DNA from: an uncultured archaeon
GTDB taxonomy: Archaea > Asgardarchaeota > Heimdallarchaeia > Heimdallarchaeales > Heimdallarchaeaceae
Direction of reading: 5' to 3'
DNA length: 24,000 nucleotides
Assembly: GCA_964534625.1 (NCBI GenBank)
Contig: CAZHRF010000001.1
Span: forward strand, 12,436 to 36,435
Shown here: one piece after another, positions 7,109-13,646 of the stretch
How the letters are laid out: each line of letters begins with the position of its first letter
Position numbering within the stretch: position 1 is the stretch's first letter
Position numbers and translations under genes: made by a program
The notes under the pieces: generated by a model
The model's database searches: none
Told to the model about the DNA's origin: nothing
The model's input: the letters and a program-made list of their open reading frames with translations, nothing else

Positions 7109-10100
7109 AACTATGCATACGCCATGCAGTGGATGACTAGGCTAGGGTGCCGATGAAGGACGTGGTAAGCGGCGAAACGCTACGGGGAGGCGCATACAGC
7201 CATCGATCCGTAGGTCTCCGAATCGGATTTCCGGTTACAGTTGATAAGACTGTAACAACCAGTAATGGTGGGGAACGGCGGGAACCAAAACATTCAAGTA
7301 CCGCCAGGAAAAGAAAACAATCGTGATTCCGGTAGTAACGGCGAGTAAACCCGGAACAGGTCAAACCGAATGCCTATATTAATAATATGGGTGGATGTGG
7401 TGTTTTTGACTATCAAAGGATCGTCAGAGCTAAGTCGAAATAGCTTATGAAAGCTATGCCAAAGAAGGTAATAGCCCTGTAGACGTAAACTCTCGACCTG
7501 ATAGATTTCAAGATTAATGTGGCTTGGATTTGTCGCATGAATTTGGGAAAACTTAGTCCCAAACCTAAATACATCCCTAGACCGATAGCGAACTAGTAAC
7601 GTGAGTGAAAGTTGAAAAGTATTCGAAATACGAGAGTGAAAAGTCCCTGAAACTGTATGGTAACAGACGTGAATGGCTTAAAAGAGTAGATTCTGAGTGA
7701 AGGAAATCATTGTGAAGTGTGAGTACGAATTCAGAGGATCGAGGTCATTCGTTCCGTCTCGAAACACGGGCCGAGGAGTTTAAATCTGTGGCAAGACAAA
7801 ACATTAGTGGTGTCGTAGCGAAAGCAACCAGCACGCAGCCGTAAGGTCAGGTGCGACGTCCGACAAGGGCGTGAAGTCACAGGTTTAAGACCCGAAAGCA
7901 GTTGATCTATCCCTGGTCAAGATGAAGCGCTTCGAAAGGGGCGTGGAGGTCTGAAGAGGTATTGATATGCAATTCATTCTTCTGAATTGGGGATAGTGGC
8001 AAAAGACCAATCTAAACTGCTGATAGCTGGTTCCTCCCGAAGTATAACCACAGTATAGCGTCATTGGAGGTCGTATGTGCGGTAGAGCGACGGGTGGGGG
8101 TTTCCGTGGAGTGAAATCTGCGCGCCCCTTTCCAACTCCGAACTTGCATACACCATAGAAGATGATAGACGGGCGCATATCCGCAAGGGATATGGCCGAA
8201 AGGGGATCAACCCTACGATGGGTTAAGGGCCCTAAATCCCGGTTAAATGTTAAACAGAATGGCGTCCAACAGCGAAGACAATGAGGCGGTAAGCTTAGAA
8301 GCAGCTAACCGTTAAAAAAAGCGTAACAGCTTACTCATCGAGTTGTTGGGCCCAGAAAATGGACGGGGCTAAACCGGGTCCCGATACCTGTCCGGACTTC
8401 AAAAGAGTCTCGGGTAGGGAGGCGATCGGATTGGACAGAAGCTGGGAAGTGATTTCCAGTGGACCGTTCTGATTTGCAGATCTCGGCGGTAGTAGGAGCA
8501 TAGTGAGGTGGGAATCCTCATCGCCAAAAGCCCAAGGGTTCCTTGGCACTGTTCGTCAGCCAAGGGTTAGTCGGTCCTAAGGTGGAACTTAATACGACAA
8601 ACCGAAAGGGAAACAGGTTCATATTCCTGTACCATACGTATAGTCGCGGCAACGCAAGTTCCGAGCTGACACTAGTGGGTAGGTGGTCTAAAAATCAAAT
8701 TTTAGTTAAATCAAGAAATCTGGGAAGAACCGTTATGGTGAGAACCAGACGAATTGATGAATAGGCGAGCCATTGGTTGCTTGCTACCATTGATCCCAAT
8801 AGTCCGTGAAAAAGCGAAGAAAAATACGATTACGTATGACCGTACCCAGAACCGACACAGGTGTGGCTAGCTGAGAAGGCTAAGGCGTGTTAGGATAGTT
8901 TAGGTGAAGGAAATCGGCAAATTGGCCCCGTACCTTGGGTATAAGGGGTGCCTGGAAAGGTGAATGCCTTACCAGGTCGCAGTGACAAGGGGCACCCGAC
9001 TGTTTAATAAAAACATAGCAAACTGCAAGGGTGAAAACCTGTGTACAGTTTGTGAATCCTGGCCAGTGCAGGTGATTGAAACCGGGGTACAACTCGGCTA
9101 AGACCCTGTAAACGCCGGAGCTAACTATGAGCTTCTTAAGGTAGGCAAATGCCTAGTCTGCTAATTACAGACGTCCATGAAGGGACCAACGAGGTGCCCG
9201 CTGTCTCCACCTAAAACCTACTGAACCCACAGTCCAGCGAACAGTCTGGAACGCACCATCGGGAAGAGAAGACCCTGTGGAGCTTTACTGCTGTCAGGGG
9301 CTGTTATACTGGTGTGCATGCATAGAATAGTCAGGAGATGTTGATGGTGTGTTCTCCGGGACACACTGAAGTTGATCTTGAAATACTGACCATGTGCATT
9401 GGTATGACTTACCTCTTGCGAGGGGGACACCCCCTGCCTGGCAGTTTCACTGGGGCGGTAGCCTTTTGAAAAGATATCAAAAGGGCCCAAAGCCGAGCTC
9501 AACCGGGACAGAAATCCGGTGTAGAGTGCAAGGGCAAAAGCTCGGTTGACTGTGAATCCAATTAAACGGTTCGCAGATGTTAACGCAGGGCCTAGCGATC
9601 TTTCGCATTTGCCATATGTAGGCGGCGGAAGTGACAGAAAAGTTACCCCAGGGGTAACTGCACTTCTAAACGGAAGTGGCTTAAAAACTGGGTAACAATT
9701 ACATTTATTATCTTTCAAAAAGGTTTATCAAAAAGGCAAAAATTTTTGGGTCTTCCTAAACGATTTATATAGTGAGGAAATAGTCAAGTAACTTCAGTTA
9801 CAGGCCTATTGATTTGAGCAGATAGATTAACCTGATATTAAGAAACCATCAGAACACAGTAAAACTATAAGAGCCATTATTCCGTGAGTGAACGATAGAT
9901 AGGTTAAGAGATTGGTAACTTGCCTTTACAGGCCGACAACTGGTCTCTAATAACCGATGTGCAAAAATATTTTGTGCAAGTGCAGCCCTGAACAGAGTTG
10001 TCGTGGGTAAGAGTTCACATCGACCTCACGGCTTGCTACCTCGATGTCGGCTCTTCCTAGCTTGGTGGTGATTAAGCCACCAAGAGTGGGGTTGTTCGCC

Positions 10101-10473
10101 CATTAAAAGGGAACGTGAGCTGGGTTTAGACCGTTGTGAGACAGGTTGGATTCTATCTGATGGTGCTGGCGGGCGATTGAGAGCAAAATCTCCACAGTAC
10201 GAGAGGAACAGGCGGTTGGGGCCGCTGGTGTACCGGTTGTTCTAAAGAGCATTGCCGGGTAGCTAAGCCCTTGACGATAAGAGCGGAAAGCATCTATGCT
10301 CGAAGCGTTTCTCAAAACGAGTCGCCCATTCTGCTCTATTCTGGGGACTGGTGACAGTAACCTTAAGAGTAGACGAGAGCGCGGAAAAAAGATCCGTTTG
10401 ATAGAGCGGGGGTGTAAGCGTCGAGCTTTGGCGAGATGTTTAGCCTACCGCTACTAACTGCTCAAGCATAGTT
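7109..10473 (+). rRNA. 23S large-subunit rRNA (archaeal), interrupted by a 335-nt insertion
   Basis: 5' region GGATGACTAGGCTAGGGTGCCGATGAAGGACGTGG. Sarcin-ricin loop AGTACGAGAGGAAC (10196-10209). PTC block ACCTCGATGTCGGCTC (10038-10053). GGGAACGTGAGCTGGGTTTAGACCGT is also present. Helix 1: AACTATGC (7109-7116) pairs with GCATAGTT (10466-10473). The ends are approximate (+/-10 nt). Length is 3365 nt with the insertion and about 3030 nt without it. Confidence 0.95.
9657..9991 (+). other. Putative BHB-type (archaeal) intron in 23S domain V, ORF-less, 335 nt
   Basis: Conserved sequence stops at ...CCCCAGGGGTAA (9657) and resumes at CAGAGTTGTCGTGGGTAAGAGTTCAC (9993).
- Central helix GGGG (9651-54) / CCCT (9986-89).
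- Bulges TAA (9655-57) and GAA (9990-92).
- Inner helix CTGCACTT (9658-65) / AAGTGCAG (9978-85), 8 bp.
- The exact cut sites are ambiguous within the shared AA. The length is 335 nt either way. Confidence 0.65.
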
Positions 10474-10488
10474 AGGCCAAATGAAGTG

Positions 10489-10538: not shown

Positions 10539-10650
10539 ATTTTTTATTTATTGCTTTTAAATTTCAAAGTGAGACATACAGATTTATTTTTGTAAAATTT
10601 TTATAAAAATGCGTGATGTGGAGTTTTTATATAATAAATAGATACTAATT

Positions 10651-13467
10651 TTGATTAACTCAAAGAGAAGATATAAATTGATATCAAAAAAATATAAAAA
10701 CAATTCATCCGGAAATCATTCAATCATTGCATTACTCTGGAAATTATTTTGTGGTTTTTTGAGGTTCCTTTTACCATACATTAATTCGTTTTTAGTGGGT
10801 TTTTTTATTCTATTAGTATTATTTCCTTCTACAATTGACTATTTTCCTAAAAGTAACTTTAGAAATGTTTTTCTCATTTTTAAAAGTATATTATCATTGA
10901 ACTTAACCATGTATATATTTTCCTATGAGTGGATCCATTATTTTTGTATAACTATAGTTGTAATTTTATTTTTATTTTGTACTAAATTTTTACCATACAG
11001 GGTATGTATCAAAGATAATGTGTATTACCAGAAGAAAACTTTTTTCCCCTTATATCGCTCTTTTAGTATTATTGCCGTGAAATCTCCTTTAGACTCTTAC
11101 TTTCTTAAAAATGATCGTTATGCAAAAACAATTCATCATGACTTTATTGAGCATCTCTCAAAAAATCTATCAAAGTATAACTTATTGATTACTAAGATTC
11201 AATCTAACGATGGGTCTATATTTGGTTCTGATGTTCCTTTTTTTTTGGTTATACCAACGACAAGTTTTTTTAGACATAATCTCATTAAAAAAACAGAAGC
11301 CAATCTACTATTTGTAAAACACTCATTGAAAGTTTTCTACGATGCCACTTCGACCGTTTTAACACCGGATGAAATTGACTGGTTCTTCAATTTTTTAAAC
11401 AGTTATAAACACCGAACTGTATTTTCTCCATCATATAAAGAAACAAAGATCCCAAATTTGACTGAACATATTTATTCATTATTTATAAATGAAACTATAG
11501 GCGATGCACAGTTTCTTTTCCATATTTCAAAAATAAATGAACATGACTATTATTTATGTGCTTCATGTCTAACTAGTAACAAAGAAACTAGTACTAAAAT
11601 ATATGAAACCATTGGTTTTAAACACAAAAAAAATTATCATATCCCCTTCAATAGAATTCAAAACATTCAAGCATTTTTTTCAACAGCGATCTCTAAAAAA
11701 ACAAGATTTAAAATAAGTCTAAATAATTTAAGTAATTATATTCATATACCCAATGGATATCTTGGTACTATAATAAAAAGAAAAGAGTTTTTAAGTACAA
11801 GTTTGACTTCAGAAAAGGATAAAATAGTTCTAGGGAATACTACTGATAATTTATCTTTTCCTATTTGTTTAAAAAAAGAAGATTTACTTTTCAACATAGA
11901 AATTTATGGCATGGTTGGGCGCGGAAAGACTCAATTAGTTAGTCTGATTTTAAAACAACTAATTAGTATAGATGTAAATATGTTAATTTTTGATATCAAA
12001 GGAGAATATGCCAGAGAATATGTTCAAAATCCAAATGTAGAAATTTATACTATAGGGCGTCCAAATCCCTTGTGTGTTAATGTTTTTGAGACTCAAGATG
12101 AAGACGATGTTCGTAGCACATTACTGATCTTAGAAGAAATGCTGAAAACATCTAATCAAGATTTTTCTCCTGCTATGAAAAATCTATTCGAAACTGCACT
12201 ATTTTTAACACATAAAACTAAAAGAAGACATCTTAAAACGTTTATAGAAAATCTAATAGACGTCACATCAAATCTCCGTATTCAAGGCAACAGTAATTAT
12301 GTCCAACAGACATTAGATGCTGTTTTAAATCGGTTAAATTTTATTTTCAATCCTATAAATTTTGATATATTTGGTGTTTCAAGAACCACTCTCGATTTTA
12401 CTAAATTTGAAAATGGAAAAACTATAATATTGGATTTTTCAGAGTTCCAAAGGAGGGCAGCAAGACCTTCTGATATATATCTCATTTGTAATATAATATT
12501 AAAAATGTTCTATAGATATGCAACGAGTAGAGGTGTGACAAATAAACTTAGATATCTAGTTGTACTTGAAGAGGCGGTAAATATTATTCCTAGAATATAT
12601 ACGAATGAAAGTTCGGCTTCTTTAATAAGCTCAGAAAACAACTTTTTGTTGGGAAGAAACCTTGGAATTGGCCATATAACTATTTCACAAATGTGGGATA
12701 GCGTTAGTAAGATTGTTCATGGTAATTCTTCTACAAAAATTATTTTTAGAAGTAGTGAAAAAACCGATAAAATAGCTCGTGCATTGAATATTGGAGAAGA
12801 TGAAATAAATAATTTACATAAATTACCAATTCAGCATTGTTATGTATTCAAAGACGGTTTTGAAAAAGCTTTGGAACTTAAAACAAATAATATTTCAACG
12901 AACTCTTACAATTACTCTAATTATCTCTCTCTACTAAGAAGAAAATATCCATCACGTCAATATCCCTTGTTGTATGAAAATTTTATTGAAATGCGAACAT
13001 CACTTTATAAACAAGTAAATAAAATTCAGACTTTTGAAAAGGACAAATCTTCTCAATCGGACCATTATCCTATAGAGCGAAATAAGAATGAAAATCTATC
13101 ATCTGTTAATAGATCAATATATCATAATCAAAGTACTATTACTATAGATCAATTATATCAAGATGATATTTGTAACCAATTATGCCAATTAAGTAATCAT
13201 TCTGTTCACTGTTATAAGGGCAAATACATTGCTATGATGTTTGTTGGAGAACTTCAAAAAAGATATAAGGATAAAGAATTACTAAATATAGTATTTAATT
13301 GCGACCTCTTTAATTCTGTTACTAGCCATGTAGAAAAAAATATTGGTATAAATATAGATCAACCAATAAAATTTTGTATCATTCAAAACCTAATATTCGA
13401 CTTACTAAAAAAAACGAATCTGTCTGAAAATAATGCAGTACAAATACTGAGAAAATATGTAGAATAA
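10651..13467 (+). CDS. Membrane-anchored P-loop ATPase of the HerA/VirB4/FtsK (DUF87-like) superfamily
   Basis: 938-aa ORF.
- The N-terminal ~115 aa hold 3-4 hydrophobic helices (IIALLWKLFCGFLRFLL, LVGFFILLVLF, IHYFCITIVVILFLFC).
- Walker A: YGMVGRGKTQ, followed by the HerA/VirB4-style IFDIKGEY.
- Walker B: YLVVLEEAVNIIP.
- GRNLGIGHITISQ ... TKIIFRS matches the HerA-type C-terminal ATPase blocks.
- About 300 aa before and 230 aa after the ATPase core have no motif I recognise.
- The start is TTG at 10651. The first in-frame ATG is 86 codons downstream and would remove two helices, so the start is uncertain. Confidence 0.75.
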   Translation: MINSKRRYKLISKKYKNNSSGNHSIIALLWKLFCGFLRFLLPYINSFLVGFFILLVLFPSTIDYFPKSNFRNVFLIFKSILSLNLTMYIFSYEWIHYFCITIVVILFLFCTKFLPYRVCIKDNVYYQKKTFFPLYRSFSIIAVKSPLDSYFLKNDRYAKTIHHDFIEHLSKNLSKYNLLITKIQSNDGSIFGSDVPFFLVIPTTSFFRHNLIKKTEANLLFVKHSLKVFYDATSTVLTPDEIDWFFNFLNSYKHRTVFSPSYKETKIPNLTEHIYSLFINETIGDAQFLFHISKINEHDYYLCASCLTSNKETSTKIYETIGFKHKKNYHIPFNRIQNIQAFFSTAISKKTRFKISLNNLSNYIHIPNGYLGTIIKRKEFLSTSLTSEKDKIVLGNTTDNLSFPICLKKEDLLFNIEIYGMVGRGKTQLVSLILKQLISIDVNMLIFDIKGEYAREYVQNPNVEIYTIGRPNPLCVNVFETQDEDDVRSTLLILEEMLKTSNQDFSPAMKNLFETALFLTHKTKRRHLKTFIENLIDVTSNLRIQGNSNYVQQTLDAVLNRLNFIFNPINFDIFGVSRTTLDFTKFENGKTIILDFSEFQRRAARPSDIYLICNIILKMFYRYATSRGVTNKLRYLVVLEEAVNIIPRIYTNESSASLISSENNFLLGRNLGIGHITISQMWDSVSKIVHGNSSTKIIFRSSEKTDKIARALNIGEDEINNLHKLPIQHCYVFKDGFEKALELKTNNISTNSYNYSNYLSLLRRKYPSRQYPLLYENFIEMRTSLYKQVNKIQTFEKDKSSQSDHYPIERNKNENLSSVNRSIYHNQSTITIDQLYQDDICNQLCQLSNHSVHCYKGKYIAMMFVGELQKRYKDKELLNIVFNCDLFNSVTSHVEKNIGINIDQPIKFCIIQNLIFDLLKKTNLSENNAVQILRKYVE

Positions 13468-13560: not shown

Positions 13561-13646
13561 GCCAGGATAGCCAAGCGGACTAAGGCGCTGGTCTTGAAAA
13601 CCAGTTTTCTTTGAAAGCCGGGGTTCAAATCCCCGTCCTGGCTCCA
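13561..13646 (+). tRNA. tRNA-Ser (anticodon UGA), class II with long variable arm, CCA encoded
   Basis: Acceptor GCCAGGA/TCCTGGC. Anticodon stem-loop CTGGT-CTTGAAA-ACCAG (anticodon TGA). Variable arm TTTC-ttt-GAAA. T arm CGGGG-TTCAAAT-CCCCG. Discriminator T, then CCA at 13644-13646. Confidence 0.93.

Follow-up and report, generated by a model that had tools for sequence, protein, structure and literature searches.

A 24,000-nucleotide (nt) stretch of contig CAZHRF010000001.1 from an uncultured archaeon of the family Heimdallarchaeaceae (hereinafter, the window) encodes a membrane-anchored ATPase, which belongs to the HerA/VirB4 clade within the FtsK-HerA superfamily and is the product of a vertically inherited chromosomal core gene of Heimdallarchaeota. 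Taken alone, this copy is an ordinary, well-behaved family member; the membrane-anchored VirB4/CedD-like motors of Asgard archaea as a whole are a strongly conserved family that is found in most of the Asgard families sampled. By analogy with the relatives that have been studied, we tentatively read the ATPase as the motor of an undescribed DNA-transfer apparatus, for exchange or uptake, resembling the Ced system and type IV secretion systems (T4SS), an assignment that seems to us quite possible but short of probable. Eukaryotes have no closer known relatives than the Asgard archaea and, to our knowledge, very little is known about DNA exchange, the building of surface structures or the segregation of chromosomes in these archaea; concrete handles on such a machine are few, and the ATPase, being present in most Asgard families sampled, is one of them. 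The gene had been singled out in an original prediction made from the letters of the window alone. Its parts are the following (positions in the window; aa, amino acids; ORF, open reading frame).

10651..13467, + strand: ATPase gene, ORF of 938 aa with a TTG start, HerA/VirB4/CedD-like, membrane-anchored
10720..10995, + strand: membrane anchor, residues 24-115, two long hydrophobic helical hairpins, 2-4 spans
10996..11820, + strand: N-terminal alpha/beta domain, residues 116-390, without a Pfam match
11821..12900, + strand: HerA-type P-loop ATPase core, residues 391-750, Pfam DUF87, conserved motifs
11908-11931, + strand: Walker A, residues 420-427, invariant motif
12559-12576, + strand: Walker B with the catalytic Glu, residues 637-642, invariant motif
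13051..13164, + strand: disordered linker, residues 801-838
13165..13464, + strand: C-terminal helical domain, residues 839-938, with Cys841, Cys845, Cys854 and Cys909

The ORF is genuine and intact, and the four ATPase motifs are where the original prediction had placed them, namely GRGKTQ at residues 423-428, IFDIKGEY at 446-453, VVLEEA at 637-642 and GIGHITISQ at 672-680. Further landmarks of the core are DIKGEY (448-453), ISQ (678-680) and Arg700, along with two signatures of the family, RAARPSD (602-608) and AVLNRLNFIFNP (557-568). The transmembrane helices claimed for the N-terminus are borne out by hydropathy, with long hydrophobic stretches at residues 23-66 and 73-121 (2-4 spans), and by the AlphaFold2 model, with helices at residues 24-64 and 71-112; one to four such N-terminal stretches are present in 18 of the 19 relatives checked. 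The model, built on an alignment of 57 sequences (mean predicted local distance difference test score, pLDDT, of 78), revises two other claims. Within what had been taken for 300 aa of unrecognizable sequence, residues 116-360 are modelled confidently as an alpha/beta domain (pLDDT of about 85-92), and the supposed Asn/Ser-rich tail consists of the linker (pLDDT below 50, poorly conserved) followed by a folded helical domain (residues 839-937), with two invariant cysteines, Cys845 and Cys909, and a third, Cys854, that at least 90% of the sequences share. Only the Heimdall family has this Cys-bearing C-terminal domain, for which metal binding is a possibility. When residues 750-938 were modelled alone (pLDDT 68.6), a fold search of the PDB gave no match (best E value 2.8), either to a winged helix or to another known fold.

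Profile and fold comparisons agree on the clade that the original prediction had named. Pfam DUF87 (HerA) matches residues 392-604 with an E value of 3.6e-15 (57.1 bits vs a gathering score of 23.2), and the only other Pfam match is to part of the TrwB P-loop. Among NCBIfam models, CedD scores best (NF053655; E value 1.2e-18, 67.1 bits, residues 301-727), positions 107-507 of which are aligned, so that the last third of the N-terminal domain is covered; CedD is also the top NCBIfam match for five of the seven Asgard relatives scanned (best score 97 bits). The Ced ATPases, already listed among the relatives in the original prediction, are the closest ones that have been studied. NCBIfam HerA models reach 33-42 bits vs cut-offs of 800 bits (HerA_Thermprot, 32.6 bits), and a sequence-profile search of the PDB returned only weak HerA P-loop matches. 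In a Foldseek search against the PDB, VirB4/TrwK of plasmid R388 ranked first (E value 5.5e-16), with 806-845 aligned columns, an extent that takes in the N-terminal domain; HerA hexamers followed with 550-640 columns. Among viral structure models, the best matches are VirB4-like membrane ATPases of large Bacillus phages. A partial PHROGs match to a terminase-type ATPase was set aside as uninformative beyond superfamily membership. Residues G420, G423, G425, K426, E640, E641, Q680 and R700 are invariant in 23 sequences. We count the intact catalytic apparatus, that is, the invariance of Walker A, Walker B with its Glu, and Arg700, in favor of a DNA-transfer motor. Two outcomes that the original prediction had named as speaking against it were firm placement in a characterized family and Walker motifs lost in a decaying gene; we found no profile that places the ATPase firmly in such a family, all NCBIfam scores being far below their cut-offs, and the motifs to be invariant in relatives.

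The gene had been described as an orphan. A search of 5.8 billion protein clusters, however, returned about 60 full-length homologues, most of them 890-960 aa long, 36-41% identical to the ATPase overall and from metagenome-assembled genomes (MAGs) of Heimdallarchaeota. All named homologues of this tight family are from Heimdallarchaeota, and its two most conserved peptides are confined to Heimdallarchaeota among 185,579 species genomes. For a phyletic survey, 301 Asgard genomes were sampled, with families coded f1, f2 and so on, f1 being the gene's own. A full-length orthologue is present in 25 of the 28 f1 genomes (E values of 1e-160 to 1e-200), and the gene is, therefore, not an orphan. Orthologues of 955-970 aa (E values about 1e-100) are encoded in f6, a sister family in the same class, whereas most other Asgard families have collinear relatives that match residues from about 350 to about 750 within ORFs of 830-1440 aa. 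Such a relative was found in 70 of 76 genomes of f11 and in every sampled genome of f12, f18, f19, f20 and f23; f5 and f2 gave only weak matches, and just two of the 68 sampled f14 genomes yielded the gene. When 1.84 billion representatives were searched exhaustively with a profile, 950 proteins were recovered at E values of 0.001 or lower, but only about 14 full-length clusters; several of the distant matches align from about profile position 200, inside the N-terminal domain. Among the named members of the wider family are proteins of Odin-, Njord-, Hod- and Korarchaeota, the collinear relatives thus extending to Korarchaeota. A literature search, which took in the text of Beltran et al. (2023), found this Asgard ATPase family described nowhere.

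Mean identity to the relatives is about 61% in the ATPase core, 19-22% in the membrane anchor, N-terminal domain and C-terminal domain, and 12% in the linker. The protein tree groups by genus and family. The gene is intact and under strong purifying selection, and no paralogue was detected by BLASTP in the source genome. In one genus (g4), the genomes have, in addition to the main copy, a shorter paralogue (800-920 aa), in many cases with a TnpB (Cas12f-like TNB) gene after it (loci L021, L034, L037-L039 and L066), and one MAG has five loci or fragments. In some g4 contigs, the second copy is reduced to about 530 aa, with only the ATPase and the C-terminal domain; we considered these forms as split genes and rejected that explanation, given that they are truncated second copies beside TnpB. 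These extra copies look as if they were decaying, unlike the main copy.

The original prediction also allowed for a remnant of an integrated element, a reading that the immediate setting, beside a tRNA-Ser gene, could suggest. The ATPase gene indeed lies between the 23S rRNA gene, which ends at 10477, 174 nt upstream of the ORF, and the tRNA gene, which, as a neighbour, has no part in the gene's function:

13561..13646, + strand: tRNA-Ser(TGA), 93 nt 3' of the ATPase ORF

The higher AT content that had been noted is real as well: at 27.5% GC vs a mean of 33.1% (standard deviation 2.6) for the genome's ORFs of at least 300 aa, the gene falls in the lowest 1.7% and is the most AT-rich long ORF of its neighborhood. 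Furthermore, VirB4-like ATPases are typical of conjugative elements. Nevertheless, no integrase or other mobile-element gene is encoded in the window, the flanks contain no repeat of the tRNA-Ser sequence, the catalytic motifs are invariant, and the relatives, between 25% and 49% GC, follow their hosts in base composition and fall on average only a mild 1.5 points below them. Together with the vertical tree, orthologues in 25 of 28 family genomes at related positions in core neighborhoods already contradict this origin, which we regard as scarcely credible. In g4, the ATPase gene is preceded by the 23S rRNA gene, with or without a gene for a 560-aa helical protein between the two, and is followed by the operon for the stalk proteins L1/L10/P1. 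In the source genome and in two other genera (g2 and g5), a block of tRNA-Ser, topA, the PolD small subunit and STT3 adjoins the ATPase gene in three local arrangements; the tRNA-Ser/topA part of it stands beside the orthologue in three genera, in differing orientations. ORFs inside rRNA genes served as markers here, showing that the 23S rRNA gene adjoins the ATPase gene in several genera.

Among the known systems, CedD comes closest. It consists of membrane helices, an N-terminal domain and a HerA/VirB4-like ATPase, is required in Sulfolobales for DNA import but not for aggregation pili, and is encoded there apart from the other ced genes (PMC11868833, PMC11823120). CedD corresponds to SiRe_1715 and Saci_0667, the ATPase of the Sulfolobales Ced DNA-import system, and has a Thermoproteales counterpart, TedD. 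The Asgard ATPase shares this layout and the separation from any system genes, and has CedD as its best profile match; it is, however, about 400 aa longer, with a larger N-terminal domain and the additional linker and Cys-bearing helical domain, and its host is a mesophilic Asgard archaeon rather than a crenarchaeon. VirB4/TrwK (PDB 8rtd, 7o41-7o43) is the best structural match and gives the longest alignments, over both the N-terminal domain and the ATPase. We take the N-terminal membrane hairpins to recall VirB3-VirB4 fusions. The differences from VirB4 lie in the chromosomal, stand-alone location of the Asgard gene, outside any conjugative element, and in the tests of membership considered below.

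The proposed mechanism follows from these analogies. Like CedD, CedB and VirB4, the ATPase would assemble into a hexameric ring, docked by its own anchor at the cytoplasmic side of the membrane. The use of ATP would then drive a polymer, most probably DNA, through or to a channel in the envelope; alternatively, the ring might help to assemble a conduit for DNA. The other parts of the machine would be encoded elsewhere, candidates being a module of a T2SSE ATPase, a mini-ORF and a surface glycoprotein located 24-33 kb away (see below). Should DNA movement be the function, Ced-type exchange would extend from hyperthermophilic Crenarchaeota to Asgard archaea, which would bear on how genetic exchange arose in the stem lineage of eukaryotes.

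The role of a canonical HerA is already taken in the source genome. HerA, a DNA-end-resection helicase (PDB 4d2i, 9x1m), matches the Asgard ATPase in the core and in its motifs (DUF87, DxxGEY, hhhhEEA and the Q/R sensors), but is soluble and paired with NurA, Mre11 and Rad50, whereas the Asgard ATPase is anchored and has none of these nearby. Contigs C6 and C86 of the source genome carry a separate NurA-HerA pair and a HerA-Mre11-Rad50 set, and because the canonical HerA roles are thus filled, we count this, too, in favor of a DNA-transfer motor. A HerA-type component of an anti-phage defense system is another conceivable function, to which partial PADLOC matches to HerA models (best score 47 bits) and to mad8, and the presence of HerA-Sir2 and HerA-DUF4297 complexes among the Foldseek matches, could point. 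The membrane anchor and VirB4-like N-terminal domain argue otherwise, as do the vertical inheritance at a conserved core position, rather than in a patchy defense island, and the lack of an adjacent effector gene (Sir2, DUF4297 or a nuclease) in about 45 loci; we consider a defense role very improbable. A second DUF87 ATPase of the source genome, soluble, 1007 aa long, with an N-terminal P-loop and no anchor (C2:1118-4141, locus L023), shows weak matches to CedD, TraD, VirB4 and CedB; it is encoded at a contig end, adjoining a gene for an AAA_33/zeta-toxin-like kinase, and may be a defense or mobile-element gene.

Several results weigh against the DNA-transfer motor, and they begin with the failure of the ATPase in the tests of membership of both CedD and VirB4. 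The CedD score of 67.1 bits does not reach the equivalog cut-off of 600 bits. The overall TM-score to VirB4 is only 0.30-0.34, which is expected for a multi-domain model but is still weak, and the VirB4 N-terminal family PF03135 (CagE_TrbE_VirB) and TIGR00929 are absent among the Pfam and NCBIfam matches of the ATPase. Nor were partner genes recognized. In line with the original prediction, the window products include no NurA, pilin, pore protein or integrase, and across about 45 loci there is no consistently adjacent partner gene. In the source genome (completeness 89.8%), neither CedB (best score 22.8 vs 700 bits) nor TrbL/VirB6 (13.7 vs 25.9 bits) was found, and there is no match to PF03135 anywhere. 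CedA-like and TedA-like channels and the corresponding pilins (CedA1, TedC) are reported to be too divergent for sequence searches (Beltran et al. 2023), and their apparent absence is therefore uninformative. With all this taken into account, the DNA-uptake or DNA-transfer reading is plausible.

The candidate partners come from the longer relatives of the ATPase in f11 (1240-1280 aa), which share with it collinear membrane helices, N-terminal domain and ATPase (27-31% identity in the core) and the signatures FD[IV]KG.EY, [AV]LLNRL, VVLEEA.N..P..YT and N.STKI.FR, but end in a C-terminal extension of about 500 aa, compared with a tail of 190 aa in the Heimdall proteins. A literature search found no paper describing these relatives. 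In nine loci from several genera, where the f11 protein is 1240-1275 aa long, its gene comes after those of a TFB paralogue, a T2SSE ATPase (pilus or VirB11-type) and a hydrophobic mini-ORF of 70-106 aa, and is transcribed divergently from the gene for an anchored Ig-like surface protein; the clustering with the T2SSE ATPase, mini-ORF and surface protein is seen in part in f28 and f29 as well. The tight clustering in f11 differs from the situation in Heimdallarchaeaceae, where the corresponding genes are at least 20 kb away. Parts of like kind are encoded in the source genome on the contig that carries the ATPase gene, around Cdc6/Orc1:

C1:48835-59064 (locus L065 2835-13065): origin-proximal gene set, outside the window, 24-33 kb 3' of the ATPase gene

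The set opens with ORFs of 205 aa and 269 aa, the latter multi-span, and a T2SSE-type ATPase gene (C1:50262-51605), of which the 269-aa ORF lies downstream. Next come the RFC small subunit, encoded on the opposite strand, a TFB paralogue, a surface protein of 964 aa, Cdc6/Orc1, a conserved 99-aa protein and, last, a 62-aa hydrophobic mini-ORF (C1:58876-59064; putatively pilin-like). Compared with f11, the T2SSE and TFB genes are orthologues (E values 3e-76 and 3e-66, respectively) and the mini-ORF is a homologue (4e-6). The surface protein of the source genome has a signal-like N-terminus, is anchored at its C-terminus and contains 28 N-glycosylation sequons; it is like the f11 surface protein in layout but shows no BLAST similarity to it. 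The T2SSE and ATPase genes are separated by 5 kb in f11, by 8 kb in f6 and f20, by 16 kb in f17, by 20-24 kb in f1, and by 107-150 kb in the two complete Heimdallarchaeum genomes. This pattern fits an ancestral cluster that eroded in Heimdallarchaeota, and fits shared origin-proximal synteny equally well.

The module bears directly on a different function, in which the ATPase would be a motor for the assembly of a surface filament or for protein secretion, resembling VirB4 in pilin dislocation and working with the T2SSE ATPase, a pilin and a glycoprotein on a substrate other than DNA. VirB4, the best structural match, drives pilus biogenesis in T4SS; the gene clustering in f11 (in part, in f28 and f29) and the presence in the source genome of T2SSE, TFB and mini-ORF homologues and a surface protein of like architecture, without detected sequence similarity, also count for this function. 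However, CedD, which gives the closest profile, serves DNA import rather than aggregation pili, the genes are at least 20 kb apart in Heimdallarchaeaceae and 107-150 kb apart in the two complete genomes, and f14 has the T2SSE module in 57 of 68 genomes but the ATPase gene in only two; hence the module is independent of the ATPase gene. On balance, a filament or secretion motor appears rather unlikely. The independence of the module also counts against tying it to a DNA-transfer motor: the T2SSE module is present in 261 of the 301 Asgard genomes and, being nearly universal, does not co-vary with the ATPase gene, so that the T2SSE linkage may be only shared origin-proximal synteny. We leave on the doubtful side the broader proposal of a domesticated Ced/T4SS-like machine that exchanges chromosomal DNA, with this family and its longer Asgard relatives as the motor. 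The machine would involve the origin-proximal module of a pilus-type ATPase, a putative Flp-like pilin and a surface glycoprotein, and in Heimdallarchaeota its motor would be tuned by the Cys-bearing, possibly metal-binding, C-terminal domain.

The proximity to origins invites yet another explanation, a housekeeping translocase akin to FtsK/SpoIIIE, that is, a membrane-anchored hexameric pump that clears or segregates chromosomal DNA at the division site or near the origin. FtsK is likewise a membrane-anchored ring ATPase of the same superfamily with a long intervening region, and ftsK, like the gene studied here, is a stand-alone chromosomal core gene. The neighborhood is origin-proximal, and its genes relate to DNA: the window encodes topA and the PolD small subunit, a Cdc6 gene is 31 kb from the ATPase gene in the source genome, and the small protein encoded beside Cdc6 occurs near the relatives in f20 and f29. 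In f6, the genes for the NEP1/EMG1 methyltransferase, the ATPase, Cdc6/Orc1 and a 111-124-aa protein follow one another on the same strand in all four genomes (L019 and L040-L042), with the ATPase gene directly upstream of Cdc6/Orc1, a set that may be an operon at the replication origin. By contrast, the protein itself is of a different clade: Pfam FtsK_SpoIIIE (PF01580) does not match it at E values of 0.01 or better, the C-terminal domain has no recognizable gamma-type winged helix and no PDB match, and the N-terminal domain aligns with VirB4 and CedD, not with the FtsK linker. In addition, the gene was not found in 66 of 68 f14 genomes and has only weak matches in f5 and f2, and is therefore not a universal Asgard division component. 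We judge a division role to be improbable, albeit worth weighing; if it were true, an archaeal functional analogue of FtsK would have been identified.

The start and promoter of the ATPase gene are ambiguous, with two TTG codons and two A/T boxes to choose from. The identical database protein (P0002) starts at the next in-frame TTG, at 10678, giving 929 aa; from there, the N-terminus reads MISKK, similar to the MxKK of homologues. Two A/T stretches, read directly from the sequence and lying 3' of the 23S processing stem, may provide the gene with a promoter of its own:

10625..10640, + strand: TATA-box-like A/T stretch TTTTATATAATAAATA, 5' of the ATPase start
10600-10609: second A/T stretch, TATA-like, TTTATAAAAA

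Besides the ATPase gene, the window carries archaeal 16S and 23S rRNA genes and genes for a Roadblock protein, a PCI-domain protein, STT3, topA and the PolD small subunit. The short ORFs at 7137-10315 lie within the 16S and 23S rRNA genes and are artefacts (their equivalents in related loci are ORF clusters c14-c19); they recur across loci as "conserved proteins" because the rRNA itself is conserved.

Several other neighbors were considered as partners and rejected. CBS-domain and metabolic neighbors of the distant relatives are ordinary housekeeping genes, and two ORFs downstream in locus L039 (a 111-aa two-span and a 291-aa six-span ORF), like the 64-73-aa two-span ORF upstream of the gene in Heimdallarchaeum, do not recur elsewhere. 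The proteins of another family (c6) are about 560 aa long, soluble, entirely helical and without a Pfam match; in g4 and g2, their genes adjoin the ATPase gene, at times as two or three divergent copies (L005:8018-9694, with equivalents in L025-L033, L044 and L026). This family was rejected as an obligate partner, being soluble, multi-copy and not encoded beside the gene in the source genome, g3 or g5; the source genome has only a weak homologue of it, at C4:64000-65940.

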